A stretch of DNA of 64,000 nucleotides, from contig JACDCD010000124.1 of assembly GCA_013694625.1 (NCBI GenBank), positions 7,539 to 71,538 on the forward strand. The letters run 5' to 3'. Under the pieces are notes generated by a model that saw only the letters and a list, made by a program, of their open reading frames with translations, did no database searches and was not told the origin of the DNA. This DNA comes from Actinomycetota bacterium. Its GTDB lineage: Bacteria > Actinomycetota > CADDZG01 > WHSQ01. Position numbers and translations under genes: made by a program. Shown piece after piece: positions 4,955-41,968 of the stretch (position 1 is its first letter; every line of letters begins with the position of its first letter).

Positions 4955-4966
4955 GGTCAAAGGACA

Positions 4967-6704: not shown

Positions 6705-6707
6705 GTC

Positions 6708-7562: not shown

Positions 7563-7565
7563 GCC

Positions 7566-8249: not shown

Positions 8250-8263
8250 GGGGCTCTCCGAGA

Positions 8264-9616: not shown

Positions 9617-9617
9617 C

Positions 9618-10688: not shown

Positions 10689-10757
10689 ACCGAACCACTC
10701 AGCGGCAGCCCTCCCTGGGCTACCAACTCCGGTATGGCGCGTGGGTACCCTGGCCTT

Positions 10758-18755: not shown

Positions 18756-18917
18756 AGAAAGGGGGTGGGCCGGCTTTGAGTCTCAGATTCTTGACGGGCG
18801 AATAGGCCCACCGCGGCGGCGGGCTCGTCGACGGTTGCTTCCTCTAGGATGGAGGCAGCGAGCTGGTGGAGATCTCTCAGCTTGCTCGACCGCTCAGGCA
18901 TATCTGAGAGAGAAGCA

Positions 18918-20701: not shown

Positions 20702-20723
20702 TACGGGTGAGTCAAGTCGCCCC

Positions 20724-20752
20724 TTGACTATCGAACACATGTTCGATATAGT
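20724..20752 (+). promoter_or_regulatory. Sigma-70-type promoter TTGACT-N17-TATAGT of the DUF222-HNH gene
   Basis: TTGACT at 20724-20729 and TATAGT at 20747-20752. GGAGGG RBS before ATG 20789. Confidence 0.65.
20731..20746. promoter_or_regulatory. LexA SOS box TCGAACACATGTTCGA
   Basis: Perfect match to the actinobacterial SOS box TCGAAC-N4-GTTCGA. It fills the -35/-10 spacer exactly. Confidence 0.75.
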
Positions 20753-20788
20753 TCTTGATGGGCCGCGAACCCGGGCCGCCGGAGGGAC

Positions 20789-21955
20789 ATGAAATCGTCC
20801 GGCAGCACCGACAACCGAGAGGTCATCGCCGAGCTCAGCTCGGCCCACGCCGAGGTCACCTCCGCCCAGAGACGTCTGCTCGAGGTCGTGGCCCGGTGCG
20901 ACCGGGACCAGACCTGGCGCTCGGACGGCTCCAGGGACCTCGCCGAGTGGCTCTCGGCCCGCCTGGGGATCTCGAACTGGGCGGCGCGGCGCTGGATCTG
21001 CGCCGCCCACGCCCTCACCTGCCTGCCCCGGTTGCGGGACGCGTTCGAGTCCGGGGCTCTGGGTCAAGACAAGGTCGTGGAGCTTTGCCGCTTCGCCACC
21101 CCCGAGACCGAGGCGCGGCTGATCAGGTGGGCACGCCGGGTGACCGTGACGGGCGTAAGGCACCGGGCCGACCTCGCCACCCGGTTGGACCCCGCCGAGG
21201 TCACAGAGGCCGACCGCAGCCGTTACCTCCATTACTGGTGGTTCGACGACGGCAGGCGGCTCGGTCTCGAGGGATCGCTCCCCGCCGCCGACGGGGCGGC
21301 GGTGGCAAAGGCGCTCGACCGCCTCGCCGATCGCATGCCCGACATCATCGACGACGACACCATCGCTGACCCGGGGGCTGTGCCCGAGGAATCCTTGGAC
21401 GCCCGCCGCGCCGATGCGTTGGTGGCGCTGGCGTCGGGCCACATCGCCGGGGACGCAGACCCCGACCGGGCCACAGTCGTGGTCCAGGCCGAGCTCGGCG
21501 CGCTGGTCGGCGGCGAGGGCGGCTGCGCCATCGAGGGTGGCCCGGTGATCCACCCCGACGGCGCCCGCAGGCTGCTGTGTGACGGCCGTCTCCAGACCGT
21601 GGTCTCAGACCACACCGGGCAGGCGGTCGGGATCGGGCGGGTGGCGCGCACCGCGCCGCCGTGGATCCTGCGCCAGCTGCGCTGGCGGGACCGGGGCTGC
21701 ACCTTTCCGGGATGCGAGCTGAGGCGCTGGCTCCACGCTCATCACATCCGGCACTGGATCGAGGGCGGGCCGACCGATCTCGACAACCTCGTGCTGGTGT
21801 GTAGCCGCCACCACAAGCTGGTCCACGAATATGGGTGGAGGGTCAGGTTGGGGGCCGGTGGGATCGCCGATTGGTCCCGGCCCGACGGGCGCCGGTTCAG
21901 GCCGGATCTGACTCCCGGGCGGGCGCCGCCCGGGGAGCTTGCATCCACAGCGTGA
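20789..21955 (+). CDS. DUF222 (13E12-repeat-type) HNH endonuclease
   Basis: 388 aa. N-terminal DUF222-like region (AQRRLLEVVARCDRDQTWRSDGSRDLAEWL). C-terminal HNH (CTFPGCE...HAHHIRHW...NLVLVCSRHHKLVHE). Confidence 0.85.
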   Translation: MKSSGSTDNREVIAELSSAHAEVTSAQRRLLEVVARCDRDQTWRSDGSRDLAEWLSARLGISNWAARRWICAAHALTCLPRLRDAFESGALGQDKVVELCRFATPETEARLIRWARRVTVTGVRHRADLATRLDPAEVTEADRSRYLHYWWFDDGRRLGLEGSLPAADGAAVAKALDRLADRMPDIIDDDTIADPGAVPEESLDARRADALVALASGHIAGDADPDRATVVVQAELGALVGGEGGCAIEGGPVIHPDGARRLLCDGRLQTVVSDHTGQAVGIGRVARTAPPWILRQLRWRDRGCTFPGCELRRWLHAHHIRHWIEGGPTDLDNLVLVCSRHHKLVHEYGWRVRLGAGGIADWSRPDGRRFRPDLTPGRAPPGELASTA

Positions 21956-22073: not shown

Positions 22074-23192
22074 CTACTCGGAGAGCGTCTCCCTGATGAC
22101 GGCCTCGACAACGCCCTCGAGCCGTCCCGTCCGCCTGAAGGAGCGCCGCTGCCGGTCCGCACCCGTCCCACCCCGTAAGGTCGCCCGCACGAGATCGGCG
22201 ACCTCGTCCCAATCGCCGTTTGCTTCGAGGTAGGGGCGCAGACGAGCCAGGTGATCTTCGATCACCTGCGCGGCCGGCCCGGCGGTGGCTTCCTGAAGGT
22301 CGATCAGCGTGTCGCTGAGACCGAAACGCGCGGCGCGCCACTTGGCGGCGCGAGCTAACTCCAGGCGCGGCAGGTTCGGCGGCGCACCGCTGAGGACCTG
22401 AGCGTGGCAGATCTGGGCGCTCGCCCGGATGAGGCCCGTGACCATCACGGCCTCGTCTATCGAGCTGCATACATCGGTCACGCGGAATTCGAGCGTGTCC
22501 CAGCGCGCCGACGGGCGCACGTCCCAGTAGATCTCGGCTTCGTCCTTGATGCTGCCCGTGGCGACCAGGCTCCCCACAAGCCTCTCGTATTCGGCGCGCG
22601 ACCCAAAGCCCTCCGGGAGCCCGCCGGTCGGCCAACGGTCACACATATCCGTCCGGTAACTTGCAAAACCGGTGTCCCGCCCCAACCAGAAGGGCGAATT
22701 GGCTGCAAGGGCGATCAGGGGAGGAAGCCATACGGCAGTTCGCTCCATCGTTTGCAGGGCCGCCTCGGAGTCCTCGATACCGACGTGAACATGGAAACCG
22801 AAGACGATGTGTTCGCGGACGAGCTGCGCATAGTCGCGCTCCATGGCGAGATACCGGTCGGTGGGCGTGACGGTCTGGTCGAGCCAATGCGAGAAGGGGT
22901 GCGTCCCGGCCGCTGCGATCTGAACGCCCACAGCCTCCGCCGCAACCCTCAACTCCTTCCTCGACTGCACGAGCTCGGCGCGCACTTCCTCCAAAGTGTT
23001 GCAAACCACGGTGCTGATCTCGACCTGGGAGAGGTTGAGCTCGGGGTGAGCCCCCCCGCCCGAGACGTCTGCGCTTGACAGGACCGGTTCGGCTCGTTGC
23101 GTCAATCCGAAGGTATGGGGATCGACTATCTGATACTCCTCCTCGACGCCCAGGGTGAAGTCACGAGTCCGGGATCGCTCAGGGGGCCCCAC
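22074..23192 (-). CDS. YbdK/GCS2-family carboxylate-amine ligase (paralog 2)
   Basis: The track ORF extends spuriously to 24041. The homologous region starts at GTG 23192, whose G is shared with the TAG stop of paralog 1. TLGVEEEYQIVDP... is collinear with paralog 1. Confidence 0.8.
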   Translation of the reverse strand: MGPPERSRTRDFTLGVEEEYQIVDPHTFGLTQRAEPVLSSADVSGGGAHPELNLSQVEISTVVCNTLEEVRAELVQSRKELRVAAEAVGVQIAAAGTHPFSHWLDQTVTPTDRYLAMERDYAQLVREHIVFGFHVHVGIEDSEAALQTMERTAVWLPPLIALAANSPFWLGRDTGFASYRTDMCDRWPTGGLPEGFGSRAEYERLVGSLVATGSIKDEAEIYWDVRPSARWDTLEFRVTDVCSSIDEAVMVTGLIRASAQICHAQVLSGAPPNLPRLELARAAKWRAARFGLSDTLIDLQEATAGPAAQVIEDHLARLRPYLEANGDWDEVADLVRATLRGGTGADRQRRSFRRTGRLEGVVEAVIRETLSE

Positions 23193-24319
23193 TAGCCCGC
23201 GCCGGTTTCGGCGACGATAAGGTCGACGACGTCCTCCAGACGCCGGCCTCGCCCGAACGCCTCCCGCTGGCGCGCCGCCCCGGTGCCGCGCTCGATGGCC
23301 TGGTGCACGAGCACGGAGGTCTCCGCCCAGTCCCCGTTGTCTTCGAGGGAGGGTCGAAGAAAGTTGAGCCAATCGTCGATGACCTGGAGGGCGGGTCGTG
23401 ACCTCCGCTCGTTCACATCGACGAGCGTAGCGTCGAGTCCGTAACGCGCTGCGCGCCACTTTGCTGCTTGCAGCAATTCCGGACGAACCACAGGGATGGC
23501 TTCGTCGCGTATGGCTTGCTCGTAACACCTGCGAGTCAAGGCGCGAGCGAGCCCTGCCAACATCACCGCTTCGTCTACGGTCATGCAGACGTCGGTAACC
23601 CGGTACTCGAGGGTGTTGAAGCGTGACGAAGGGCGCACGTCCCAGTAGATGCGAGTTTCCTCGGCGATGGCCTCTGTTGTGACCAGAAGCTCGATCACCT
23701 CTTCGTATTCCGAGCGCGATCCGAACACCTCCGGGGAGCCGGCCATAGGCCATCGCCCCCACACGTCGGTGCGGTAGCTCGAATAGCCGGTGTCCCGCCC
23801 CATCCAGAAGGGCGACGATCCGCCGAGTGCCAGCATCGGAGAGAGCCAGCCCCTCACCCGGTTCATGGTTTGCACGGCAGCCTCGCGGTCGTCGATGCCG
23901 ACGTGCACGTGGTAGCCGAAGACGATCTGTTCTTTCGCCAATTGCCCGTAGTCTTCGGCCATGCCGAGATATCGCTCCTTGGGGGTGATGGTTCCATCGG
24001 CAGGGTCGGCCAGCGGGTGCGAACCTGCCGCTCCGATCCACATGCCCTCTTCGGCCGCAGCCGTGCTGACCGCACGCCTCGAGCGCACAAGCTCGGCGCG
24101 CACCTGCGTCAGGTCATCGCAGACGGGCGTGCCGATCTCGATCTGGGAAAGTTGAAGCTCGGCCTCGACGTTAACCGGCGAGCTCTCGGCCCGGGACAGG
24201 ATCGCCTCGGCCCGCTGCATGAGGGAGCGGGTGCCTGGATCGATGATCTGATATTCCTCTTCGACCCCCACGGTGAAGGTCTGCTGCACGGACGTCGCGG
24301 GCCTCCCTTGGCGTGACAT
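23192..24319 (-). CDS. YbdK/GCS2-family carboxylate-amine ligase (paralog 1)
   Basis: 375 aa. FTVGVEEEYQIIDP, HVHVGIDD and SPFWMGRDTGYSSYR are typical of glutamate-cysteine-ligase family 2. Confidence 0.85.
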   Translation of the reverse strand: MSRQGRPATSVQQTFTVGVEEEYQIIDPGTRSLMQRAEAILSRAESSPVNVEAELQLSQIEIGTPVCDDLTQVRAELVRSRRAVSTAAAEEGMWIGAAGSHPLADPADGTITPKERYLGMAEDYGQLAKEQIVFGYHVHVGIDDREAAVQTMNRVRGWLSPMLALGGSSPFWMGRDTGYSSYRTDVWGRWPMAGSPEVFGSRSEYEEVIELLVTTEAIAEETRIYWDVRPSSRFNTLEYRVTDVCMTVDEAVMLAGLARALTRRCYEQAIRDEAIPVVRPELLQAAKWRAARYGLDATLVDVNERRSRPALQVIDDWLNFLRPSLEDNGDWAETSVLVHQAIERGTGAARQREAFGRGRRLEDVVDLIVAETGAG

Positions 24320-24418: not shown

Positions 24419-24715
24419 TCAGGCGATGAGGCCCACCGCCCAGCGCAGGACCGTTATGGCGCCGATAATCACGAACAGGGCTCCGAAGAGAACAAGTGGC
24501 CCCACCCACCAATCGGTGCCGCGTTCTATTGGGTTGGTGGCTGCGTCGCCGTGGCGCACCACGAGCTGCGGACCCCCAGGCTGACGAAAGTGCAGGTGCG
24601 CCCGCTTGCCCTCCACCAGGTCCGCAAGGCCCTGGAGAAGGTCGAGGAGCTCGGCGTCATCGACGATCAGCGTCGTCTCCTCCAATGGCTCTCCGCTGCG
24701 ATCCTCGACCCTCAT
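24419..24715 (-). CDS. Hypothetical small protein with C-terminal transmembrane anchor
   Basis: 98 aa. The ATG overlaps the lrp stop (ATGA), arguing for translation. C-terminus WWVGPLVLFGALFVIIGAITVL is hydrophobic. Confidence 0.55.
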   Translation of the reverse strand: MRVEDRSGEPLEETTLIVDDAELLDLLQGLADLVEGKRAHLHFRQPGGPQLVVRHGDAATNPIERGTDWWVGPLVLFGALFVIIGAITVLRWAVGLIA

Positions 24716-25155
24716 GACGTGGGGACCACGGCTCTGTGCTCGAAGGGGACAGACAATACGACGGTCGAGCTTGTCACGACCTCGAGCTTGCCTCTGAGGG
24801 CATCCAGCAACTCCTCGAGTGCACGGGTGCTGGGCGCTCGGACGACGAGCACGTAGGAGCGCTCACCGGCGACCGAGTAGCACGATTCGACCATCGGCAA
24901 CTCTGCGACCCGGCCCGGAATGTCGGTGGGGGAGGAGGCCCTGAGGGCCAGGCTCACGAAGGCGGTGATCGGCCAGCCCACCCGATCCAGCTGAACCTCC
25001 GCCCGGTACCCGCGAATGACGCCCGCCCGTTCGAGCTTTCGCACCCGGTCGTGAACCGACGACGCGGCAAGCCCGACCGCTGCGCCAACATCCGCGTAGG
25101 TGAGGCGGGCATCTCGCTGAAGGTGTCCGATGATTCTCCGATCGATCGCATCCAT
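24712..25155 (-). CDS. lrp: Lrp/AsnC-family transcriptional regulator
   Basis: 147 aa. MDAIDRRIIGHLQRDARLTYADVGAAVGLAASSVHDRVRKLERAGVI HTH plus a RAM/ligand domain. Confidence 0.9.
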   Translation of the reverse strand: MDAIDRRIIGHLQRDARLTYADVGAAVGLAASSVHDRVRKLERAGVIRGYRAEVQLDRVGWPITAFVSLALRASSPTDIPGRVAELPMVESCYSVAGERSYVLVVRAPSTRALEELLDALRGKLEVVTSSTVVLSVPFEHRAVVPTS

Positions 25156-25189
25156 TCCGAATATCCTTCCGTAAAAGTGGCTTTAAGCC

Positions 25190-25205
25190 TAATCGAATTC
25201 GGTTA
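25190..25205. promoter_or_regulatory. Near-palindrome TAATCGAATTCGGTTA in the lrp/kamA divergent region (candidate operator)
   Basis: 14 of 16 positions are self-complementary. It overlaps a TAGACT -10-like hexamer (25204-25209) about 40 nt upstream of the kamA ATG. Confidence 0.35.
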
Positions 25206-25250
25206 GACTCTTTGTCCCACCCGCAGCTCCTACCAGAAGGAGGATGCCCC

Positions 25251-26666
25251 ATGGCCATCGATGCCGTCGCCGCTATCGACCAGGTCGCAACGGGCCGGCC
25301 GGCGCGCCGGGTGCCCCAGGCGCATGCCTCCGAACAGCCTTACACATACCCCTTGCAGCGCCCCTTCGTCGAGCCGGACTGGACGCGGCTGCCCGGCTAT
25401 CGGGATGTCACAGAGTCCGAGTGGAACAGCGCGAAGTGGCAGCGCCAGCACAGCGTCAAGAACCTCGACGGCCTTCGGAGGGCCCTCGGCGAGCTTCTCC
25501 TCGAGGATCTGGCCGCATCGATCGATCGGGACCAGCGCGAACGGGCCACCATGTCAATGCTGGTGCCGCCCCAGATGCTCAACACCATGGAAGAGCAGGA
25601 TCTATGGAACGACCCGATCCGGCGCTACATGATCCCTGCCTTTGCGGATCGCGACCCGGAGTGGCCCAGCCATCCCACGGCGGAACGCGACAGCCTCCAT
25701 GAGGCCGACATGTGGGCGGCTGAGGGCCTCACACACCGCTATCCCACCAAGGTACTCGCCGAGCTTCTGTCCACGTGCCCGCAGTACTGCGGGCACTGCA
25801 CGCGCATGGACCTCGTCGGCAACAACGTCCCGCAGTTCATCAAGTATCGCTTCGAGCTCAAGCAGAAGGAGCGCTACGAAGCGATCGTCGACTACCTGCG
25901 CGCTACCCCAACGGTGCGCGATGTCGTGGTTTCGGGTGGTGACGTGGCCAACCTTCCCATCGGCCACCTCGAGTCATTTGTTGGTTCGCTCATCGAAATG
26001 GACCACATCCGCGATATCAGGCTTGCGACCAAGGGTCTCATGGGGCTGCCGCAACACTTTCTGCAGGATGACGTCCTGTACGGCATCGAGCGTCTCGCCC
26101 ATAAAGCGATCGAGCACGGTACCGACCTGGCGATCCACACTCACGTCAACCACGCCAACTCCGTCACTCCTCTTGTCGCCAAGGCCACAAAGAAGCTTCT
26201 TGAAACCGGCGTACGGGACGTACGCAACCAGGGCGTCCTGCTTCGGGGCGTCAACACGACCCCGCACGCCCTTCTGGATCTCTGCTTCCGTCTACTCGAC
26301 GACGCCAAAGTGATGCCCTACTACTTCTACATGTGCGACTTGATCCCCAATTCCGAGCACTGGAGGATCCCGGTCCACGAGGCGCAGGCTTTGCAGCACG
26401 CGATCATGGGTTACCTTCCCGGGTTCGCCACTCCGCGCATTGTGTGCGACGTTCCGTTCGTAGGCAAGCGCTGGGTCCATCAGGTCGATTCGTACGATCG
26501 GTCCAAGGGAATCTCCTATTGGACCAAGAACTATCGGACGGGCATCGAGTGGGACGACCCGGAGGCAACCACCCGCACCCACGAATACTACGATCCGATC
26601 TCCGGTCTTCCCGAAGAGGGCAAAGCGTACTGGCGCGGGCGGGTCGCCGGGCTTGCGACCGCTTGA
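25251..26666 (+). CDS. kamA: Lysine 2,3-aminomutase-family radical-SAM enzyme (KamA-like)
   Basis: Radical-SAM CxxxCxxC as CPQYCGHCTRMD. 471 aa from ATG 25251, which is preceded by AGGAGGA. Collinear with the KamA/AblA architecture. Confidence 0.85.
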   Translation: MAIDAVAAIDQVATGRPARRVPQAHASEQPYTYPLQRPFVEPDWTRLPGYRDVTESEWNSAKWQRQHSVKNLDGLRRALGELLLEDLAASIDRDQRERATMSMLVPPQMLNTMEEQDLWNDPIRRYMIPAFADRDPEWPSHPTAERDSLHEADMWAAEGLTHRYPTKVLAELLSTCPQYCGHCTRMDLVGNNVPQFIKYRFELKQKERYEAIVDYLRATPTVRDVVVSGGDVANLPIGHLESFVGSLIEMDHIRDIRLATKGLMGLPQHFLQDDVLYGIERLAHKAIEHGTDLAIHTHVNHANSVTPLVAKATKKLLETGVRDVRNQGVLLRGVNTTPHALLDLCFRLLDDAKVMPYYFYMCDLIPNSEHWRIPVHEAQALQHAIMGYLPGFATPRIVCDVPFVGKRWVHQVDSYDRSKGISYWTKNYRTGIEWDDPEATTRTHEYYDPISGLPEEGKAYWRGRVAGLATA

Positions 26667-26673
26667 CCCCGGG

Positions 26674-28215
26674 ATGAGCGGCATCCTGTTCCGGGGGGGC
26701 CCAGTCAAGTCGTTGGGCGTCTCCGGCGACGCCGATTGGGTACTCGTCGTCGACGGGCTCGTCGAGGCCACCGGCCTTCGGCAAGACGAACCCGGATGTG
26801 ACCGCACGGTCGAGCTCGATGGGGCGACTCTGCTTCCTGCGTTCTGCGACGCGCATGTGCATCTTCCGGCCACCGGGCTGTATCAGAAGGGGATGGACTT
26901 CAGGGGTCAGCACCGCTCGGCGCGCATCCTCGAGGCGTTCAGAGAGCGGGCCAGCTCGGGCGACGGTTTGCTGTTCGGAGGCAACTTCGAAGATCCCCTG
27001 GATGAGCCCCTGACGCGCCATGATCTCGACGCCGCGGTGGGAGAGCGTCCAGCAGTTCTGGCGCGGGCCGACATGCACTCATGCATCGTGTCGTCGGCGC
27101 TGCTCGATCATCTGACCATTGCCGAGCTCGAGGGCGTTGATTGCGACGATGGCGGCCGGCCGACGGGGTACCTCCGGGAGCAAGCGGCTGCCGAGGCGTG
27201 GCGGTGGTTCGACACCAACCTGCCCGAATCGCAACAGCGCGACGCCATTACCGCAGCCGTGCAGCTCGCGTACTCGAAGGGCGTCACAAGCGTGCACGAG
27301 ATGTACGTAGCCGAGTGGCGTGGCTGGTCGTCGCTGTCGCTCCTGCGCGAGGTGATTGCCGAAGTCGCGCTGGATGTCCTGATCTACGTTGCCTCCGACG
27401 ACGTCGAGCGCGTCCGGGCATTGAACCTGGGGAGGATCGGCGGCGACCTCTTCCTCGACGGCTCCTTCGGATCCCACACGGCCTGGATGGCGGATGGATA
27501 CATTTCGGCCCCTCCCGCCGGCATCCCTCCCAACGGCGTCGCCTACCGCACCGACGAGGACCTGGCCGATTTCTTCAGGGAGGCCCAGAGAGCCGGTCTC
27601 CAAGCCGGAGTTCATGCAATCGGAGACGCCGCCATCGAGCAGGCGGTGACTGCATGGGAGAAAGTGGCGGCTGAGGTCGGTGCCGCCGCCGTCGCATCAC
27701 TGGGTCATCGCATCGAGCATTTCGAGTGTGCGGGCGATGACCTCATCGCCAGAGCGCGCCACCTCGGCCTCAGGATAAGCGTCCAGCCGGCCTTCGACGC
27801 ATTCTGGGGCGGGGCCGGCGGCCTCTACTCGTCCCGCATAGGCGAGCAACGCGCCCTGAACATGAATCGCTTTGGGACGATGCTCCGTGCCGGTCTGAGC
27901 CTCGGCGCCGGTTCCGACTCGACCGTGACCCCGCTCCATCCGTTCCTTCAGATGCAGGCGCTCTGCATGCACCACGTCGAGGCCGAACGGATCACCGCCG
28001 GTCAAGCCCTGAGAATGCATACGGTGGGCTCCCGCGCCCTTGGAGGGCAGGGGGACGTTGCAGGCACGATCGAGCCCGGTCGGTATGCGGATCTGATCGC
28101 GGTGGACCACGACCCGGAGGCATGCGAGGGGGAGGCCATCGGTTCGATCCAGGTGCTCGGAACCTGGATCAAGGGCAAGCGTGTTTGGCCCGAGGAAGAA
28201 GCAGAGACAAAATAG
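26674..28215 (+). CDS. Metal-dependent amidohydrolase (amidohydrolase-3/YtcJ-like)
   Basis: HxH metal motif in LLPAFCDAHVHL, with downstream His/Asp ligands (GVHAIGDAA, GSDSTV). Confidence 0.8.
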   Translation: MSGILFRGGPVKSLGVSGDADWVLVVDGLVEATGLRQDEPGCDRTVELDGATLLPAFCDAHVHLPATGLYQKGMDFRGQHRSARILEAFRERASSGDGLLFGGNFEDPLDEPLTRHDLDAAVGERPAVLARADMHSCIVSSALLDHLTIAELEGVDCDDGGRPTGYLREQAAAEAWRWFDTNLPESQQRDAITAAVQLAYSKGVTSVHEMYVAEWRGWSSLSLLREVIAEVALDVLIYVASDDVERVRALNLGRIGGDLFLDGSFGSHTAWMADGYISAPPAGIPPNGVAYRTDEDLADFFREAQRAGLQAGVHAIGDAAIEQAVTAWEKVAAEVGAAAVASLGHRIEHFECAGDDLIARARHLGLRISVQPAFDAFWGGAGGLYSSRIGEQRALNMNRFGTMLRAGLSLGAGSDSTVTPLHPFLQMQALCMHHVEAERITAGQALRMHTVGSRALGGQGDVAGTIEPGRYADLIAVDHDPEACEGEAIGSIQVLGTWIKGKRVWPEEEAETK

Positions 28216-28241
28216 GGGCTCCATGAGAAGAGGAGGCTGGC

Positions 28242-29810
28242 GTGGCTGAAGGCGGATTCAAGGTGACCTACGCGACCATTTCGTCGGACAACGAAGAGAT
28301 GGTCAAGAGATACCAAGAGGGGATCGAAAAGGCTAAGTCATGGCTGGGCAAGGACTATCCATTCTACGTGAACGGACAGGAGCGGAACGGTGGAGGGCGC
28401 GCCGAAGAGCGTTCCCCAATCGATAACGACATCATCATCGGACACTTCGCCCAGGCAACGATAGAAGACGCTCGGGACGCTGTGGCCGCCGCCAAGGAAG
28501 CCTATCCCCAATGGTCTCAGACACCCTGGCAAGACAGGGTCGAGATCCTCAGACACGCAGCGGACCTGATCTCCGAGCGTGTCTTCGAACTCGGCGCGCT
28601 GACCGCTCTCGAGGTCGGCAAGAACCAGCTCGAGGCATTGGGCGAGGTCGAGGAGGCCGCCGATCTCATTCGGTACTACTGCCACCAGATGGAAGAGCAC
28701 GACGGCTTCTCGGTGCCCATGGGCCAGCTCAGCGAGGAGGAGAAGACCCGCAGCGTGCTGCGTCCGTACGGAGTGTGGGCGGTGATCTCTCCCTTCAACT
28801 TTCCCATCGCCTTGTCGGCGGGACCCGTCGGCGGAGCGTTGGCGGCCGGTAACACCGTCGTCCTCAAGCCATCCGAACAGGGTTTTGGGATCGCCCTCAA
28901 GCTCTACGAGATCCTGCATGAGGCGGGCGTTCCCGCCGGTGTGGTGCACGTCCTCACCGGTCCGGGCGAGACGGTGGGCCAGGCGTTGCACCAGAATCCA
29001 GATGTCGCGGGCCTCACGTTCACCGGCTCTTATGAAGTCGGTATGAAGATCTACAGGAACATCACAAAGGACTGGCCCAAGCCGGTGATCGTGGAGATGG
29101 GCGGCAAGAACCCGGCAATCGTCAGCGCAAAGGCCGATTTGGACAAGGCGACCGACGGGGTTCTCCGATCCGCCTTCGGTTACAGCGGACAGAAGTGCTC
29201 GGCGTGCTCGCGTGTGCTCGTCCAACGTCCCGTCTACGACGATTTCGTTGCACAGTTGGTCGCCAAGACCAAAGAGACCAACGTAGGAAACCCACTGGAA
29301 GCGGGCGTCTACGTCGGTCCCGTCATTGATGCCGCCGCGGTCGAGCGATTCGAGTCTGCTTCTGCCCAGGCCGGGGAAGAGGGCCGTGTTATTGCAGGCG
29401 GCGCTCGTATTCAAAAAGACGAGTTGGCACGCGGAAACTTCGTAGAGCCCACCGTGGTCGAGGTGCCGATCGATTCCGGGGTATGGCGAGACGAGTTGTT
29501 CGTGCCTCTGGTAGCGGTTCACCCGGTCGACTCCCTCGAGCAAGCCTGGGAGCTCGCCAACGACACGCCTTACGGTCTGACGGCGGGCTTCTACTCTGAG
29601 GATCGGGCCGAGGTCGACCGGTTCCTGAACAACGTGGAAGCGGGCGTGGTGTACGTGAACCGGCGCGCCGGCGCGACCACCGGCGCGTGGCCGGGCATCC
29701 AGCCCTTCGGCGGCTGGAAAGGCTCCGGGAACAGCGGCAAGGCAGGCGGCGGGCTCTACTACGTCCAGCTCTACATGCGGGAGCAGAGCCAGACGATCGT
29801 GGAGGATTGA
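28242..29810 (+). CDS. Aldehyde dehydrogenase of the 1-pyrroline-5-carboxylate dehydrogenase (RocA/PutC) type
   Basis: 522 aa. VEMGGKNPAIV and catalytic Cys in FGYSGQKCSACSR. AGGAGG RBS before the GTG. Confidence 0.88.
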   Translation: MAEGGFKVTYATISSDNEEMVKRYQEGIEKAKSWLGKDYPFYVNGQERNGGGRAEERSPIDNDIIIGHFAQATIEDARDAVAAAKEAYPQWSQTPWQDRVEILRHAADLISERVFELGALTALEVGKNQLEALGEVEEAADLIRYYCHQMEEHDGFSVPMGQLSEEEKTRSVLRPYGVWAVISPFNFPIALSAGPVGGALAAGNTVVLKPSEQGFGIALKLYEILHEAGVPAGVVHVLTGPGETVGQALHQNPDVAGLTFTGSYEVGMKIYRNITKDWPKPVIVEMGGKNPAIVSAKADLDKATDGVLRSAFGYSGQKCSACSRVLVQRPVYDDFVAQLVAKTKETNVGNPLEAGVYVGPVIDAAAVERFESASAQAGEEGRVIAGGARIQKDELARGNFVEPTVVEVPIDSGVWRDELFVPLVAVHPVDSLEQAWELANDTPYGLTAGFYSEDRAEVDRFLNNVEAGVVYVNRRAGATTGAWPGIQPFGGWKGSGNSGKAGGGLYYVQLYMREQSQTIVED

Positions 29811-29816
29811 GCGATT

Positions 29817-31208
29817 ATGGGTGATCCGAACGGGAGCGATTACGAGCGCTTGGCGGGACATACCGAACCGCTGATCTCAACTGGCCTCCCCGGCCCCAGG
29901 GGCAGCGCGATCATCGAGGCCGATGCGAAGGTAACCAGCCCGTCGCTTCCGCGCGCATACTCGTTCGTCCCGGACAGGGGCGCAGGTGCTGTGATCAAGG
30001 ACGTGGACGACAACGTCTTCTTGGATTTCAATGCTGGCATCGCGGTGTGCTCAACCGGACACGCCCACCCAGCGGTTGTTGCCGCCATCAAGGAGCAGGC
30101 AGACAAGCTTCTTCACTATTCGGCATCTGACTTCTACTTGCCGATCTACGCAGAAATGTGTGCCCGTCTCGCGGCCATAGCGCCGATGGACGGCCCGGCG
30201 AGGGCGTTCCTGACCAATTCGGGCACCGAGGCGGTCGAAGCTGCCATAAAGCTCGCCCGGCACCACACCGGACGTCAATACATCCTGTCGTTCTTCGGGT
30301 CGTTCCACGGACGTTCCTACGGCAGCATCTCATTGACCGCGTCGAAGGCGAACTACAGGGCGGATTTCGGCCCGCTGCTCCCGGGTGTGCTGCACGCCCC
30401 GTATGCCGGCCGGTTCGACTCGTTCCTCGGCCTTGGCCGTCTCGGTGGCGAGGTGGCCGAACCGGATCTCGATTACATCAACGACGTCATCTTCAAGCGC
30501 CTGGCAAAGCCACACGAAGTCGCTGCGGTCGTCGTCGAGCCTGTTCTCGGCGAGGGCGGTTATGTCGTCCCGCCGCGCTCCTGGCTGCTTCAACTTCGCA
30601 ACCTGTGTGATGCCCACGGCATTCTCTTTGTGGCCGACGAAGTGCAGAGCGGCATAGGACGCACGGGAAGCATGTGGGCGATGGAGCATTTCGATCTCGA
30701 GCCCGACATCATCCTCGCCGGCAAAGGAATTGCCAGCGGAATGCCGTTGGGAGCCATGGTCGCTCGCGCCGACTTGATGACCTGGCCCCTCGGGACCCAC
30801 GGTTCGACCTACGGGGGCAACCCGGTGTCGTGCGCAGCGGGGCTCGCGACCCTCGACCTCGTGGCCGGGGGGCTCATTACGAACGCCGGGGTGGTGGGCG
30901 AGTTCCTGATGGACGGTCTGAAGGACCTTGCGCAGCATGAGCCTGCCATTCAAGAGGTGCGCGGACTGGGCCTCATGATCGGTATCGAGCTCCCCTCGCC
31001 GCAGGTCGCCGACGCGATCGAGATCGCCGCCTTCAAGCGGGGGCTTCTGGTCCTCCGAGCCGGTGACTCGACGATTCGCATGGCGCCACCTTTGATAATC
31101 AACAGAGGGCAGGCGGCGTCCGGCCTTAGGCTCTTCGAGGATGCGTGCGCCGAAGGAGTTGCTGTTTCGGCCGGCTTGCTCTCCGAACAGAGCATGATCC
31201 GCGCATGA
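29817..31208 (+). CDS. Class-III (GabT/omega) PLP aminotransferase
   Basis: 463 aa. GHAHPAVV, DEVQSGIGRTG and PLP-Lys in LAGKGIASG. Confidence 0.88.
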   Translation: MGDPNGSDYERLAGHTEPLISTGLPGPRGSAIIEADAKVTSPSLPRAYSFVPDRGAGAVIKDVDDNVFLDFNAGIAVCSTGHAHPAVVAAIKEQADKLLHYSASDFYLPIYAEMCARLAAIAPMDGPARAFLTNSGTEAVEAAIKLARHHTGRQYILSFFGSFHGRSYGSISLTASKANYRADFGPLLPGVLHAPYAGRFDSFLGLGRLGGEVAEPDLDYINDVIFKRLAKPHEVAAVVVEPVLGEGGYVVPPRSWLLQLRNLCDAHGILFVADEVQSGIGRTGSMWAMEHFDLEPDIILAGKGIASGMPLGAMVARADLMTWPLGTHGSTYGGNPVSCAAGLATLDLVAGGLITNAGVVGEFLMDGLKDLAQHEPAIQEVRGLGLMIGIELPSPQVADAIEIAAFKRGLLVLRAGDSTIRMAPPLIINRGQAASGLRLFEDACAEGVAVSAGLLSEQSMIRA

Positions 31209-32146
31209 GCGTTGGCGGCGGCGCCGGCGGCAAGGTCACCACGATGCACGACGCCGTTGCCGACCTCGTAAAGGACGGTGACACGGTCGCGATCGAGGGC
31301 TTCACCCATCTCATCTGCTTTGCCGCGGGACACGAGATCATTCGGCAGGGGAAACGCGATCTGACGTTGTGCCGCATGACCCCGGATGTCATCTACGATC
31401 AGATGATCGCAGCAGGAGTCGCCTCCAAGCTGGTGTTCTCATGGCTGGGCAACCCGGGGGTGGGCTCGCTGCACGCCATTCGCCGGCGAGTCGAGCGCTC
31501 GGATCCCGCCCCGCTCGAGCTCGAGGAGTACAGTCACTTCGGCATGGTCTCGCGCTACACGGCGGGAGCTTCGGGATTGCCGTTCATGCCGTTGCGCAGC
31601 TATCATTCCAGCGACCTGCCCAAGGTGAATCCTCGCATTGTCGAGCTCGAGTCGCCCTATGGAGACGGCACCGTCTACGCGGTGCCCCCTTTGAATCCGG
31701 ACCTTTCCATAGTGCACGTCCAAAGAGCCGACAAGGACGGCAACTGCCATGTATGGGGCTTTCTCGGCTGTCAGAAAGAGGCTGCATTTGCGGCCCGTAA
31801 GGTCATTGTCGTGTGTGAAGAGCTGGTGAACGGACGGGTGATTCGCAGCGACCCCAACCGGACGATCATCCCCGGGCTCGTGGTGGATGCAGTGGTGGCC
31901 GAGCCCAGGGCATGCCATCCTTCCTTTGCCCAGGGCTACTACGACCGGGACAATCGCTTTTATGTCGCGTGGGATCCGATAAGCCGGGATCCTGCCAAGC
32001 TCGACGCCTGGCTCGAGGAATGGGTATACGGATTGGCCACCCACAACGATTACCTAGCCAAGATGGGCACCGAAGCGTGGGACCGGCTGACGCCCGAGCA
32101 ATGCCTTTCGGAACCGGTCGACTACGGCGCCTACTCTCCGGGATGA
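31205..32146 (+). CDS. Family-I CoA-transferase subunit A (glutaconate-CoA-transferase GctA-like)
   Basis: ATG 31205 overlaps the upstream stop (ATGA). KVTTMHDAVADLVKDGDTVAIEGF is a typical subunit-A N-terminus. Confidence 0.78.
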   Translation: MSVGGGAGGKVTTMHDAVADLVKDGDTVAIEGFTHLICFAAGHEIIRQGKRDLTLCRMTPDVIYDQMIAAGVASKLVFSWLGNPGVGSLHAIRRRVERSDPAPLELEEYSHFGMVSRYTAGASGLPFMPLRSYHSSDLPKVNPRIVELESPYGDGTVYAVPPLNPDLSIVHVQRADKDGNCHVWGFLGCQKEAAFAARKVIVVCEELVNGRVIRSDPNRTIIPGLVVDAVVAEPRACHPSFAQGYYDRDNRFYVAWDPISRDPAKLDAWLEEWVYGLATHNDYLAKMGTEAWDRLTPEQCLSEPVDYGAYSPG

Positions 32147-32907
32147 GTGCGAACCCGGCGGAATACTCCGTAAACGAGATGATGATTGCAGCGTCGGCGC
32201 GCCAGCTCGAAGGCGAAAGGGTCTGCTTTGTCGGCATTGGCCCTCCGAATATCGCATGCAACCTCGCTCGCCGAACCGTCACACCCGCTCTCGAATTGGT
32301 TTACGAAGCCGGGGTCTATGGCGCCGATCCCCAAAGGCTGCCGCTTTCCATTGGTGACCCCACCTTGGTGACGGGGGCGGTATCGGTCACCTCGATGTTC
32401 GAGATCTTTTCCTTTTACCTGCAGCGGGGGTTGATCGACGTCGCTTTCCTGGGAGCGTCCCAAATCGACCGCTTCGGCAATATCAACACGACCGTCGTCG
32501 GCGGTTACGACAAGCCGAAGGTTCGGCTCCCCGGGTCGGGAGGGGCGTGCGAAATCTCGATAAACGCAAACCGCGTGTTCGTAATCATGCCCCAGACGCG
32601 CCGGTCGTTCGTGGAGGAGGTCGACTTCGTCACGAGTCCGGGCCATCTCGCAGGCAAGCGGCCGGCGGAGTGGCTGGGGGGAGGCCCCTACGTGGTGGTC
32701 ACAGGGCTCGGCGTCTATCGATTCGGAGATGACGGCGTCATGTATCTGTCCCGCATGCATCCCGGGGTTACCGTCGAGCAGGTGCAGGCCAATACGGGTT
32801 GGGACATGCGCGTCTCTCCCGATCTCGTGGCAACAGACCCACCAAGCGAGCTCGAGCTGAATCTGATGCGCAACGAGCTCGACCCCGAAGGCGTCTACAC
32901 CCGGTAG
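32143..32907 (+). CDS. Family-I CoA-transferase subunit B (GctB-like)
   Basis: ATGA overlap with subunit A. NEMMIAASARQL..., a candidate catalytic Glu in LVYEAGV, and QIDRFGNIN. Confidence 0.78.
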   Translation: MSANPAEYSVNEMMIAASARQLEGERVCFVGIGPPNIACNLARRTVTPALELVYEAGVYGADPQRLPLSIGDPTLVTGAVSVTSMFEIFSFYLQRGLIDVAFLGASQIDRFGNINTTVVGGYDKPKVRLPGSGGACEISINANRVFVIMPQTRRSFVEEVDFVTSPGHLAGKRPAEWLGGGPYVVVTGLGVYRFGDDGVMYLSRMHPGVTVEQVQANTGWDMRVSPDLVATDPPSELELNLMRNELDPEGVYTR

Positions 32908-32909
32908 CA

Positions 32910-34253
32910 ATGGCCCGAGCGAGCAACGTTTTTCCCCGCGTCACGGATCGCGTTCTGCCGTTTGCCGCGCGGGCATCCGGCGCGTCGATCTGGGACTCCT
33001 CCGGCCGGCGTTATCTCGATGGCTCCGGCGGCGCAATAGTCGTAAATGTCGGCCATGGAGACAGGCAGGTCGTAGAGGCAATGTCCCGGCAGGCAGGCAG
33101 CATTGCCTACTCTCATGGCACCCAGTTCACAACCGAGAGCCTCGAGCGTTACGCAAGCAGAGTCGCGCCGCTGCTGCCACTCGAAGAGGCGCGCCTCTAC
33201 CCGGTCTCTGGCGGAAGCGAGGCGGTCGAGACCGCGCTCAAGATCGCGCGCACCTACCACGTCGCAACGGGCCGGTCCTCGAAGCACAAGGTGATTGCGC
33301 GCCTTGGCTCCTATCACGGCAACACCCGGGGAGCCCTCGACGCATCGGGGCGCGCCTCACTGCGTCGCCCCTATTCGGCGTGGCTCGGGCCCGCGGTTCA
33401 CGTCCCCGCGGTCTACGAGTACCGCTGCCCCTGGGACGAGCATGACTCGGGTTGTGGGGCGCGGCATGCGGAGTTGCTCGACAAGGTCATCCGGGAGCAG
33501 GGCCCGGACACCGTGGCTTGTTTCATCGCCGAGCCGGTGGTCGGCGCAGCTCTCGGTGCCGTTGCGCCCCCATCCGATCTCTGGCCGGCGGTGCAGGAGG
33601 TGTGCCGGGCCCACGGGGTGCTCCTGATTGCGGACGAGGTGATGACGGGATTCGGCCGGACCGGCCGATGGTTCGGCTCGGATCACTGGGGGCTGCGACC
33701 CGACATTCTGACGGCAGGAAAGGGTGTGACATCGGGTTACTGGCCGTTCGGGTTTGCGGCGACAGCGGGCGCAGTTTTCGACGCCATCGCCCCCACTGGA
33801 TTCGTGCACGGTTTCACCTACTCGCACTCGGCGGTCGGCGCCGCGGTCGCGGATGCGGTGCTCACGCGCCTGCAGGCCGAGGACCTCGTGGAAGCGAGCA
33901 GACGCAAAGGCGAGAGCCTGCTAGCGCAGCTTCGCGCCGCTCTGGGGGATTACCCATGCGTTGGCGACATCCGCGGCCTGGGACTGATGGTCGGTGTCGA
34001 GCTGGTGGCCGACCGGAGCTCGAAACGGCCCTTCCGGCGGGCCGAGCGGATCACCGAGCAGGTGGTAGGGGCCGCCAAGGCAGAAGGGCTCTTGGTTTAC
34101 CCCTCCACGGGGGGAGCGGCTTCCGGCGACGGTGATGTGATCATGATGGGCCCGCCGTTCGTGATCACCGACGACGAGATTGCCGAGCTCGTCGCGTTGC
34201 TTGGGCGTGCGTTGGGAGCGGTGCCCGGGCTGCGAGGGCCGGGTTCGGAGTAA
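32910..34253 (+). CDS. Second class-III PLP aminotransferase (BioA/omega- or beta-transaminase-like)
   Basis: ATG 32910 lies 2 nt after the subunit B stop. VNVGHGDRQVVEAM and ADEVMTGFGRTGRWF. Confidence 0.85.
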   Translation: MARASNVFPRVTDRVLPFAARASGASIWDSSGRRYLDGSGGAIVVNVGHGDRQVVEAMSRQAGSIAYSHGTQFTTESLERYASRVAPLLPLEEARLYPVSGGSEAVETALKIARTYHVATGRSSKHKVIARLGSYHGNTRGALDASGRASLRRPYSAWLGPAVHVPAVYEYRCPWDEHDSGCGARHAELLDKVIREQGPDTVACFIAEPVVGAALGAVAPPSDLWPAVQEVCRAHGVLLIADEVMTGFGRTGRWFGSDHWGLRPDILTAGKGVTSGYWPFGFAATAGAVFDAIAPTGFVHGFTYSHSAVGAAVADAVLTRLQAEDLVEASRRKGESLLAQLRAALGDYPCVGDIRGLGLMVGVELVADRSSKRPFRRAERITEQVVGAAKAEGLLVYPSTGGAASGDGDVIMMGPPFVITDDEIAELVALLGRALGAVPGLRGPGSE

Positions 34254-34314
34254 CCTGGGTGGAGCAGCAAAGGTCCGGACGACTCATCGCATAATCGCAT
34301 AGAGGAGTGATTAG

Positions 34315-35034
34315 ATGACGAAAAGAGTGGACGGCATCCGGGCGGTCACATACGACTGCTGGGGCACTCTCCTCAAGGACCGGGATTTCGATGCGGCAAT
34401 GGCGACGCGCGCCAAGGCTCTGAGGAGTGTGCTGGACCTGACCGAAGGACAGGCTCACGCCCTTGTCCGCGAGGCGTGGGTCAAGCATGACGACGCCTGG
34501 AAACAGGTCGAGACCTTCGGGCCCGGACGGATGGCGGCCTACTGCCTCGAAGCCAGGGGAGTGTCCGACGACGACTCCATATCGTCCCTGACCAGGGAGT
34601 TCGAGGAAGCAAGCATGGCGAGCGGCGTCGAGCCCGTCCAGGGGGCGCTCGACACCCTCCAGGCACTGGACAAGGCGGGCATCCGGCGCGGGCTCGTATG
34701 CGACACGGGATTCACACCCGGACGTGTGGTGCGGGACCTGCTTGCCGACGCCGGCCTGCTCGACTTCCTCGAGGTCCTCTGCTTCTCCGACGAGGTGGGG
34801 GTTCCAAAACCGGGCAACGACATCTTCGCCAAAGCGCTCGCAGGGTTGGGTGTGCGGCCTCCCGAGGCGGTGCACGTCGGCGATCTCCGGCGCACCGATG
34901 TCGCCGGCGCCCGGGACATGGGGATGCACGCAGCCCGCTTCAGAGGCGTCCACGACGACCTCTCCGGTGCCTCCGAGGCGGCCATAGTGATCGACCGCCA
35001 CGAGCAGATACTCGAGGTCCTGACCCTCGCCTGA
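34315..35034 (+). CDS. HAD-superfamily hydrolase
   Basis: Motif I variant YDCWGTLL, motif II LVCDTG, and motif III/IV KP...VHVGDLRRTDVAGA. GAGGAG RBS. Confidence 0.75.
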   Translation: MTKRVDGIRAVTYDCWGTLLKDRDFDAAMATRAKALRSVLDLTEGQAHALVREAWVKHDDAWKQVETFGPGRMAAYCLEARGVSDDDSISSLTREFEEASMASGVEPVQGALDTLQALDKAGIRRGLVCDTGFTPGRVVRDLLADAGLLDFLEVLCFSDEVGVPKPGNDIFAKALAGLGVRPPEAVHVGDLRRTDVAGARDMGMHAARFRGVHDDLSGASEAAIVIDRHEQILEVLTLA

Positions 35035-35064
35035 GCCGTCTGACTCCGAGCTGCCTCTACCGGC

Positions 35065-36501
35065 TCAGTATGCCCTCGCCCAGGTCGCACGCTCCGTCCC
35101 GGCCCGTCCGCACACCAGACACGGCGCGCCGGGATCCTCGGGCACCAGGGGTAGCACCCGTATGGTCGCCTTGGTGTCGGCCGTGACCCGCTCTTCGCAG
35201 GTCGCCTCGCCACACCACGGTCCGACCCACAGGCCTGCCTGCTCGGCGACGCCGTCGCGCAGCTCGGCGTAGGTGGACGCCGTGTGGGTGTTGGCCTCCC
35301 GGAAATCCAGCGCGCTCCGGTGCAACCCAGCCTGCACCTCATCGAGCGCCGCAGGCAACGACGTGGCAGCCTGAGCGGTCGACCTTTGCCGCTTGTCTCC
35401 GGTCAACCGGTCCACGGTCACAACCTGGTCCGCCGCCACGTCCTTGGGGCCGATCTCGATGCGGATGGGGACGCCCTTGAGCTCCCACTCGCTGAACTTG
35501 TAACCCGGCCGGTACTGGTCGCGATCATCGACCCTCACCCGTATCCCGTCACCCGCCAGTGAGTCCCGGAGCTTGTGGGCGACGGCCATCACCTCGCTTT
35601 TCTGGTCGTCGGATCGGTAGATCGGCACGACCACGACTTGGATGGGGGCGACCTTGGGGGGCAGACGCAGCCCGCGTTCATCTCCATGCGTCATGACAAT
35701 CCCGCCCACCAATCGCCACGACGCTCCCCAGGACGTTCCCCAGACGTGCTCGAGCTCGCCCGATTGATTCAGGAAGGTGACGTCGTAGGCCTTGGCGAAA
35801 TTCTGGCCGAGGAAATGGGAGGTGCCGCATTGGAGCGCTTTGCCGTCCCGCATGAGCCCCTCGATCGTGAAGGTCGTGACGGCGCCGGCGAACTTCTCCG
35901 CCTCCGATTTACGCCCCGGAACCACCGGGATGGCGAGAACGTCCTCGGCGACTTCCCTGTACACCTCGAGCATGCGCAGTGCTTCTTCATACGCCTCGTC
36001 GGAACCCGCGTGTGCGGTGTGCCCCTCCTGCCAGAGAAACTCGCTGGTGCGCAGAAAGAGGCGGGTGCGCAGCTCCCATCGGACCACATTGCCCCACTGG
36101 TTGTAGAGGAGCGGAAGGTCGCGGTAGCTCTGGATCCAGTTGGCGTAGGTGGACCAGATGATCGCCTCAGAGGTCGGGCGCACGACGAGCGGCTCCTCGA
36201 GCTTTGCCCCGCCGCCATGTGTGATGACCGCCAGCTCGGGCGCGAAACCCTCGACATGCTCTGCCTCCCTGGCGAGCAGGCTCTCCGGAAAGTACAGCGG
36301 GAAGTAGACGTTCTCATGCCCGGTCAACTTGAACCGGTCATCGAGCGCGCGCTGGACGAACTCCCAGATCCCGTAGCCATGTGGCTTGGCCACCATCGTG
36401 CCCCTGGCCAGGGAATGCTCGGCCATGCCCGACTGCTTCACGACTTCCCCGTACCACGCGGGAAAGTCGGTTATGGGGTTCGGAAGCCTGCCTTTGTCCA
36501 T
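35065..36501 (-). CDS. proS: Prolyl-tRNA synthetase, archaeal/Thermus-type (no editing insertion)
   Basis: Collinear with Thermus ProRS from MDKGR (ATG 36501) to C-terminal ...WARAY. Class-II motifs are present. The track start at 36624 is an upstream extension. Confidence 0.9.
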   Translation of the reverse strand: MDKGRLPNPITDFPAWYGEVVKQSGMAEHSLARGTMVAKPHGYGIWEFVQRALDDRFKLTGHENVYFPLYFPESLLAREAEHVEGFAPELAVITHGGGAKLEEPLVVRPTSEAIIWSTYANWIQSYRDLPLLYNQWGNVVRWELRTRLFLRTSEFLWQEGHTAHAGSDEAYEEALRMLEVYREVAEDVLAIPVVPGRKSEAEKFAGAVTTFTIEGLMRDGKALQCGTSHFLGQNFAKAYDVTFLNQSGELEHVWGTSWGASWRLVGGIVMTHGDERGLRLPPKVAPIQVVVVPIYRSDDQKSEVMAVAHKLRDSLAGDGIRVRVDDRDQYRPGYKFSEWELKGVPIRIEIGPKDVAADQVVTVDRLTGDKRQRSTAQAATSLPAALDEVQAGLHRSALDFREANTHTASTYAELRDGVAEQAGLWVGPWCGEATCEERVTADTKATIRVLPLVPEDPGAPCLVCGRAGTERATWARAY

Positions 36502-41914: not shown

Positions 41915-41968
41915 CGCTAGAGGTCCATTTGTAGCGTTGTCGACATGTCCACTCTTGCCCCCGATCCC

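Follow-up and report, generated by a model that had tools for sequence, protein, structure and literature searches.

The window, a 64 kb stretch of contig JACDCD010000124.1 from a soil bacterium of the Actinomycetota, includes an operon of eight co-directional genes (25251-35034, + strand) headed by a gene for a KamA-family aminomutase. Comparison with related loci makes it likely that a cassette of five genes within this operon consumes the beta-lysine predicted to be made by KamA, in place of the KamDE and Kdd enzymes of classical lysine fermentation. That the operon handles lysine-derived beta-lysine appears well supported, and it probably serves lysine catabolism, with a downstream branch that has not been described before. 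A broader proposal is made more tentatively and falls slightly short of an even chance, namely that the operon specifies an undescribed cobalamin-independent route that is widespread in soil Actinomycetota and Gemmatimonadota and interchangeable with KamDE/Kdd, with a YtcJ amidohydrolase and a HAD hydrolase of the DxW type as obligatory partners of KamA. Related loci, here called relatives, were obtained from homologue and metagenome searches and are numbered L001 etc.

The order and families of the eight genes had been given in a preliminary description of this DNA and were confirmed by Pfam and NCBIfam searches of the open reading frame (ORF) calls. The first gene (25251-26666) predicts a radical-SAM, pyridoxal phosphate (PLP)-containing aminomutase of the KamA family, and the second (26674-28215, with an alternative TTG start at 26653) a YtcJ-like metal hydrolase belonging to Amidohydro_3 (PF07969, 249 bits). 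The cassette follows and consists of genes for an aldehyde dehydrogenase (ALDH; 28242-29810; Pfam Aldedh), a class-III omega-aminotransferase, AT1 (29817-31208; Pfam Aminotran_3), the alpha and beta subunits of a glutaconate-type coenzyme A (CoA)-transferase (CoATa, 31205-32146; CoATb, 32143-32907; both Pfam CoA_trans), and a second class-III aminotransferase of the omega/beta-amine type, AT2 (32910-34253; Pfam Aminotran_3). The last gene (34315-35034; Pfam Hydrolase and HAD_2) predicts a HAD-fold hydrolase. Read from the sequence, the junctions are, in order, 7, 26, 6, -4, -4, 2 and 61 nt, and GGAGG precedes the ATG of the KamA gene. The close spacing described earlier holds, but the range is -4 to 61 nt, not 0-60 nt, and the supposed several ATGA overlaps are two, AT1/CoATa and CoATa/CoATb. 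The arrangement is not due to chance, since other, independent assemblies (L001, L002, L083-L085 and L087) contain an identical operon.

The genes for classical lysine fermentation, kamA-kamDE-kdd(-kce-kal), were reportedly defined in Clostridium and Fusobacterium by Kreimeyer et al. in 2007. The window operon resembles that system in its KamA-type first step, with the same substrate-binding residues, but the remaining genes had been said to be missing and this is correct within the window. No match was found anywhere in the 64 kb when Kdd, KamD, KamE and the 4HBT thioesterase of a relative were used as tblastn queries, and Pfam searches of almost all the remaining genes of the window revealed neither Kce, Kal nor a thiolase. 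Two class-III transaminases, an ALDH resembling delta-1-pyrroline-5-carboxylate (P5C) dehydrogenase (P5CDH) and a Gct-type CoA-transferase are present instead. No cobalamin-dependent step is included, and the gene content shows an operon that is, by prediction, independent of cobalamin.

The strongest evidence for the role of the cassette is a replacement of modules at the orthologous locus. In the closest relatives outside the lineage of the window, whose KamA proteins are 71-81% identical, the order is KamA-Kdd (KDD_N)-Amidohydro_3-KamD (Lys-AminoMut_A)-KamE (OAM_dimer/B12-binding)-(4HBT thioesterase)-HAD, and this classical-type operon is flanked by the same Lrp and prolyl-tRNA synthetase (ProRS) genes as in the window. 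The wider flanks are also common to both, with TatAC-HelY-diacylglycerol kinase (DAGK) upstream and ProRS-DUF4193 downstream. The window retains the frame of Lrp, KamA, amidohydrolase and HAD, with ALDH-AT1-CoATa-CoATb-AT2 standing in place of kdd and kamDE. In this lineage, the cassette would have taken over from the cobalamin-dependent KamDE/Kdd branch.

Two further arrangements link the same genes to KamA. L166 and L167 carry all eight in the order KamA-ALDH-AT1-CoATa-CoATb-AT2-Amidohydro_3-HAD. In three Gemmatimonadota loci, L046, L054 and L078, KamA lies directly before AT1 or ALDH-AT1 and the order is shuffled relative to the window; CoATab is found in all three, and L078 contains ALDH and AT2 as well. 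Genes for a GntR regulator, an amino-acid permease and an M20 hydrolase occur in the vicinity. The Gemmatimonadota proteins are 44-63% identical to those of the window (62-63% for CoATa). It is because of the module swap at the orthologous locus, the second gene order and the independent linkage to KamA in Gemmatimonadota that the non-classical genes are taken to stand in for KamDE/Kdd.

The KamA-like protein belongs to a large, divergent subfamily of about 460 aa proteins that share 66-81% identity across Actinomycetota, Acidobacteriota, Myxococcota, Gemmatimonadota and Elusimicrobia. It has no Pfam match at 1e-3, and misses the cut-offs of both the NCBIfam model for lysine 2,3-aminomutase (lys_2_3_AblA, 188 bits versus 525) and that for the KamA subfamily (TIGR00238, 178.6 versus 199.2). 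However, it matches the Clostridium subterminale enzyme (PDB 2A5H) with E = 7e-47. CPQYCGHCTR aligns with C125, C129, C132 and R134 of 2A5H, i.e. the CxxxCxxC motif and the carboxylate-binding Arg, and the segments MCDL and VCDVP correspond to D293 and D330, the two residues that hold lysine by its epsilon-ammonium group. All six residues are invariant in 85/85 aligned members of the subfamily (2A5H numbering). An invariant Lys lies six residues after D330 in the 85 members (DVPFVGKRW), whereas the PLP lysine of 2A5H, K337, is seven residues after it, and the phmmer alignment stops one residue before K337. Conversion of L-lysine to beta-lysine is predicted for this protein, and is supported indirectly by the orthologues that are operon partners of KamDE and Kdd.

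The earlier concern that the aminomutase might act on glutamate or arginine is largely met by these residues and by context. If arginine, ornithine or glutamate were the substrate, the downstream enzymes would process, for example, beta-arginine or beta-glutamate. All of the NCBIfam equivalog models of the KamA family are missed, the glutamate and arginine aminomutase models at 140 bits each, and the protein carries insertions relative to clostridial KamA, as might be expected were the substrate a different one. Glutamate 2,3-aminomutases have Lys and Asn at the positions of D293 and D330. As the lysine-specific Asp293 and Asp330 are both kept, specificity for glutamate is largely removed, and specificity for arginine or ornithine is unlikely because orthologues 71-81% identical are the operon partners of beta-lysine 5,6-aminomutase and 3,5-diaminohexanoate dehydrogenase. 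No guanidino-hydrolase is present. A substrate other than lysine is therefore hardly credible. The specificity residues, proposed earlier as a check, are hence of the lysine type.

KamA also occurs alone. Stand-alone KamA genes are common in Actinomycetes, with unrelated neighbours in, for example, L030 and L034, and in the Actinomycetes, Acidobacteriota and Myxococcota the neighbours (GGDEF/EAL, phosphoesterase, transketolase, kinases) are uninformative as to function. A conserved gene of about 98 aa precedes stand-alone KamA in 13 loci, and a CN_hydrolase gene follows it in four. In 14 Myxococcota loci, a second KamA-family member, a distant paralogue with 28-30% identity, lies either next to the conserved KamA or at most a few kb away.

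The ALDH scores 450 bits on the P5CDH model PRK03137 (cut-off 648) and 440 on TIGR01237 (cut-off 660), compared with about 305 on models for succinate-semialdehyde dehydrogenase (SSADH), and in the PDB its match to P5CDH 1UZB (314 bits) exceeds that to SSADH 3JZ4 (261 bits). The motifs VEMGGKN and GQKCSA, containing the catalytic Glu and Cys, are present in the translation. AT1 passes the cut-off of NF004426/PRK05769 (552) with 554 bits, as do its counterparts in L166 (564) and L054 (585) and 7VNO (702), which is its best PDB match (361 bits). From the deposit name and the length, we infer that 7VNO is PH1423 of P. horikoshii, listed as an ornithine/lysine delta/epsilon-aminotransferase that acts on L/D-ornithine and L/D-lysine, more weakly on omega-amino acids, and with minor activity on gamma-aminobutyrate (GABA) (PMC9986279). 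AT1 also scores 350 bits on GABA-transaminase models. AT2 is below the cut-offs of its nearest models (PRK07483, 440 bits; PRK06917, 404 bits); its best PDB match is the uncharacterised 3I4J (300 bits), followed by putrescine, polyamine and omega-transaminases. The best PDB match of CoATb is GctB (1POI_B, 139 bits), which acts on C5/C6 dicarboxylates, and the CoATb segment vyEaG aligns with ivEsG of GctB, indicating that the catalytic Glu is kept. Non-transferase relatives AibB and IpdB score below GctB against CoATb, and AibB, a decarboxylase relative, lacks this Glu. On the PcaI and PcaJ models the two subunits reach 26 and 42 bits, against cut-offs of 128 and 244.

Beta-lysine is 3,6-diaminohexanoate, or beta-homo-ornithine. 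In the route proposed here, KamA would convert L-lysine to beta-lysine, and AT1, as a beta-lysine 6-aminotransferase, would remove the C6 amine to give 3-amino-6-oxohexanoate in equilibrium with a P5C-like cyclic imine. The P5CDH-like ALDH would oxidise this to 3-aminoadipate (beta-homoglutamate), which AT2, as a 3-aminoadipate aminotransferase, would convert to 3-oxoadipate. The glutaconate-type CoA-transferase would then form 3-oxoadipyl-CoA, though the last two steps could occur in the reverse order, and a thiolase encoded elsewhere would yield succinyl-CoA and acetyl-CoA. The order of C6 transamination, oxidation, beta-transamination and CoA transfer is favoured as the best fit to the enzyme subfamilies, and each cassette gene would be used once. 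A single ALDH would suffice because the second deamination yields a ketone. Acetyl protection would not be needed, which matches the absence of an acetyltransferase from all four operon versions, i.e. those of the window, L166/L167, the Gemmatimonadota and the classical relatives. All substrates and products after beta-lysine are predictions, and the whole route from lysine to 3-oxoadipyl-CoA via 3-aminoadipate is considered evenly balanced between right and wrong. A route from beta-lysine to 3-oxoadipate had been put forward in the preliminary description; the beta-lysine operon and the replacement of KamDE/Kdd by the cassette are well supported by synteny, but the specific order of steps is still an assignment made from enzyme families.

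Several findings weigh against the route. KamA, ALDH and AT2 all fall under the curated cut-offs of their nearest NCBIfam models, Pfam annotation reveals no thiolase in the window, and none of the intermediates proposed here is recorded in the searchable literature. Three unrelated amide hydrolases lie beside the cassette, depending on lineage: Amidohydro_3 in the window, M20 in Gemmatimonadota and an HDAC-like protein in soil loci. Their presence may point to an N-acyl or lactam intermediate, for which the proposed route has no need. In addition, the cassette is mostly found without KamA. Among 80 loci returned by a metagenome scan with a CoATa alignment, 79 have no KamA in the fetched DNA, the remaining one being L087, and KamA is absent from all 22 cassette loci for which 3 kb or more of upstream sequence is available. 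Given this scarcity of KamA nearby, the native substrate of the cassette may be something other than beta-lysine. As genes for proline dehydrogenase and P5C reductase are near it in several loci, the ALDH could also be an ordinary P5CDH.

The amide hydrolases find a place if the same genes act in a different order, starting at C3 and leading to GABA and succinate. Such a route via N6-acetyl-beta-lysine was reportedly worked out enzymatically by Barker's laboratory in Pseudomonas B4, and the yodT-kamA operon of Bacillus subtilis has a gene set that matches it. Here, AT2, as a putative YodT-like enzyme, would transaminate beta-lysine or N6-acetyl-beta-lysine at C3, the CoA-transferase would activate the resulting 3-oxo acid, and a thiolase would produce acetyl-CoA and 4-amino- or 4-acetamido-butyryl-CoA. 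The amidohydrolase would either deacetylate the product or open 2-pyrrolidone formed from 4-aminobutyryl-CoA, with AT1 serving as GABA transaminase and the ALDH as SSADH. This scheme gives a role to every cassette gene as well as to an amide hydrolase, and would account for the non-homologous hydrolases adjoining the cassette in three lineages. It is also consistent with the GABA-transaminase score of AT1 and the minor GABA activity of PH1423, and with 3I4J, the closest structure to AT2, being also the one closest to YodT (PMC6522883).

However, all four operon versions lack a GNAT gene. The window has a single one (18849-19313, +), its only acetyltransferase gene, which predicts a small, generic protein of 154 aa and lies 6 kb upstream of the operon, behind an insertion sequence (IS) element; with such a length and position, it does not qualify as the AblB/YodP-type beta-lysine acetyltransferase. 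A conserved acetyltransferase was also sought among the relatives, but only membrane acyltransferases in single loci were found (HGSNAT_cat, L078 8830-10038, - strand; Acyl_transf_3, L166 11394-12761, - strand) and these are not conserved. Furthermore, the ALDH is P5CDH-like and not SSADH-like, the CoA-transferase is of the glutaconate (dicarboxylate) type and not ScoAB, and the amidohydrolase is kept equally in the KamDE/Kdd version, where neither an acetamido nor a pyrrolidone intermediate is expected. On chemical grounds, 6-amino-3-oxohexanoate without protection would be expected to cyclise. A C3-first route is accordingly rather unlikely, though still a serious alternative.

The loci without KamA suggest another explanation, that the cassette is a general module for a different amine and is merely beside KamA in the window. 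Candidate substrates would be ornithine or proline (through P5C), putrescine or cadaverine (through amino-aldehydes, to glutarate) or further omega- or beta-amino acids, and the beta-lysine would be made for a separate use, for example as an osmolyte or a natural-product precursor. ALDH-AT1-CoATa-CoATb-AT2 is, from its distribution, an autonomous and widespread module that is frequent in metagenomes from soil and usually occurs without KamA. All five genes are present in 21 metagenome loci, and their order is the same in 21/21. Most copies of ALDH, AT1, CoATb and AT2 share 55-70% identity with their window counterparts, and CoATa is 66-76% identical except in L087, a relative of the window itself (96%). 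In cassette-only soil loci (L102, L106, L116 and others), genes for TetR, proline dehydrogenase and P5C reductase are found ahead of the cassette together with a divergent FAA-hydrolase gene; an HDAC-like gene of the acetylpolyamine-amidohydrolase type follows it in about five metagenome loci. These neighbours are in keeping with an amine other than beta-lysine, as are the putrescine and polyamine transaminases among the characterised relatives of AT2, and glutaconate-type transferases accept glutarate. A glyoxalase-like gene lies between AT1 and CoATa in four metagenome loci.

Nevertheless, the cassette replaces kdd/kamDE in a conserved, translationally coupled operon in which KamA is kept, and if it served another amine the beta-lysine would have no consumer. 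Linkage to KamA has arisen in no fewer than two phyla, and the gene order differs between them. Routes from diamines need two aldehyde oxidations whereas the cassette has one ALDH, and there are no acetyltransferase or NRPS-type genes nearby that would suit an osmolyte or natural product. An unrelated substrate thus appears distinctly improbable. In a neighbour-joining tree of CoATa, the cassettes linked to KamA fall into two distinct clades, with the cassette-only loci between them. This topology fits either an ancestral function in beta-lysine breakdown, with KamA encoded elsewhere like the stand-alone genes of many Actinomycetes, or two independent recruitments.

The roles of the amidohydrolase and the HAD protein had been left unexplained, and comparison of the classical and cassette operons places them as translationally coupled core partners of KamA in either version, i.e. 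as part of the KamA frame and not of the cassette. KamA operons of either type carry an amidohydrolase orthologue, which follows KamA/Kdd in some and AT2 in others. As both genes are shared by the two operon versions, their substrate should be common to them, namely lysine, beta-lysine, a precursor or a side product. The best PDB matches of the amidohydrolase, 3ICJ and 3IGH, are uncharacterised, and a search for homologues returned only orthologues of at least 59% identity from the same KamA operons, hence no independent context. Functions as a 5'-deoxyadenosine deaminase, a lactamase or an N-acyl-lysine deacylase were considered and none was supported.

The HAD gene is always the last of the operon, before the convergent ProRS gene. 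In the window protein, motif I is atypical, D-C-W-G-T, and DxW(G/A)T is found in 6 of 7 aligned orthologues from classical and cassette operons, the seventh (L166) being a gene call without the N-terminus. The form D-C-W-G/A-T is shared by the window, L002, L081, L082, L167 and L168. The phosphatase motif I, DxDx(T/V), is therefore absent, with the general acid/base at Asp+2 replaced by a conserved Trp. This suggests a HAD protein other than a phosphatase, and the pattern resembles the DxYGT motif of 2-haloacid dehalogenases.

Several known systems share parts of this gene set. The actinobacterial frame includes Amidohydro_3 and DxW-HAD genes, which clostridial operons lack. The B. subtilis yodT-yodS-yodR-yodQ-yodP-kamA operon likewise links KamA to a class-III aminotransferase with 3I4J as its closest structure, a two-subunit CoA-transferase and an amide hydrolase. 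The window differs from it, and from the Pseudomonas B4 route, in having no YodP/AblB-type acetyltransferase and a CoA-transferase that is glutaconate-type instead of ScoAB. It also differs from the B. subtilis operon in that its hydrolase belongs to Amidohydro_3 and not to M20, the family seen in the Gemmatimonadota relatives, and in the addition of a second transaminase and a P5CDH-like ALDH. The function of B. subtilis KamA and YodT is itself stated to be unresolved (PMC6522883).

The closest parallel to the proposed AT1 and ALDH steps is the conversion of ornithine to glutamate by ornithine delta-aminotransferase and P5C dehydrogenase. AT1 is in the ornithine/lysine omega-aminotransferase family and the ALDH is nearest to P5CDH of the RocA/Thermus type, and the two steps would be the one-carbon-longer, or beta-homo, analogues of that pair. 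However, the ALDH reaches 450 bits where the P5CDH cut-off is 648, and the operon also encodes KamA, a CoA-transferase and a second transaminase, which ornithine catabolism does not require. The predicted end product, 3-oxoadipyl-CoA, and the use of a family-I CoA-transferase recall PcaIJ and PcaF of the lower beta-ketoadipate pathway, but the window subunits are Gct-like and there is no adjacent thiolase. A variant of lysine fermentation employs Kat, a 3-aminobutyryl-CoA aminotransferase described as 'HemL-like' (PMC3149608). It sets a precedent for replacement of a lysine-fermentation step by a class-III beta-transaminase, possibly one that acts on a CoA ester, though Kat acts after KamDE, Kdd and Kce whereas the window transaminases would replace KamDE and Kdd themselves.

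To our knowledge, the established fates of beta-lysine are few, comprising cobalamin-dependent fermentation, N-acetylation to an osmolyte, the acetyl-protected route of Pseudomonas, modification of EF-P and antibiotic biosynthesis. A literature search revealed no 3-aminoadipate or 3-oxoadipate as a catabolite of beta-lysine, no such route and no description of the cassette. If the proposed route is correct, it would be a new pathway for lysine catabolism that joins lysine to the lower beta-ketoadipate pathway, and would explain how KamA is used without cobalamin in abundant soil bacteria. It would also assign functions to the five genes of a very common and highly conserved cassette, perhaps to the YtcJ family of amidohydrolases too, and would provide enzymes for beta-amino-dicarboxylates and C6 diacid precursors (3-aminoadipate and 3-oxoadipate). 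The natural swap of modules makes the hypothesis directly testable with few recombinant enzymes.

The divergent regulator noted earlier is confirmed by Pfam as a member of the Lrp/AsnC family (24712-25155, - strand; HTH_AsnC-type and AsnC_trans_reg), with LysM/Lrp as its best NCBIfam match, below the cut-off. It points away from the operon, and an orthologue occupies the same place in relatives with classical and with cassette-type operons. The operon is probably under its control. A palindrome, CTAATCGAATTCGGTTAG, read from the sequence at 25187-25208 within the 95-nt spacer between Lrp and KamA, is a putative operator; in an alignment of this spacer from classical and cassette-type relatives, the core columns CCTAAT...TTC.G are invariant, from which we infer binding. 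Another block of the same alignment, box 1 (25157-25171), was rejected as an operator because it represents the Shine-Dalgarno sequence of lrp, read in reverse complement. A promoter and terminator scan of 24600-35300 gave counts at chance level and nothing usable within the operon. A search of the whole window with Rfam found a single tRNA-Pro and no lysine riboswitch before KamA.

Between DAGK and Lrp-KamA, the shared synteny is broken in the window by an IS-type transposase gene (rve, - strand) and a DUF222/HNH gene (19492-21955), and relative L081 has nucleoside hydrolase and M15 peptidase genes at this position. Two tandem GCS2 genes, predicting YbdK-like carboxylate-amine ligases, follow (22074-24319, - strand). 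The Lrp gene is overlapped at its stop codon by an ORF of 98 aa with no Pfam match (24419-24715, - strand), and the two may share a transcript. This region of L081, L082 and L168 contains unannotated genes of similar length (about 99 aa).

Elsewhere in the window, glycine-cleavage genes (split P protein, T and H) and an alanine dehydrogenase gene are located at 39117-43039, 46589-46975 and 62038-63150. Were AT2 to use pyruvate, this dehydrogenase could recycle the alanine formed, but there is no link between it and the operon. Upstream, a complete Pup-proteasome locus (Mpa/ARC ATPase, Dop, PrcB, PrcA, PafA, DUF3866 and PafB/PafC-like WYL regulators), followed by TatA/TatC and a HelY-type helicase, is found at 3188-12745, and the Pup-proteasome genes mark the source as Actinomycetota.

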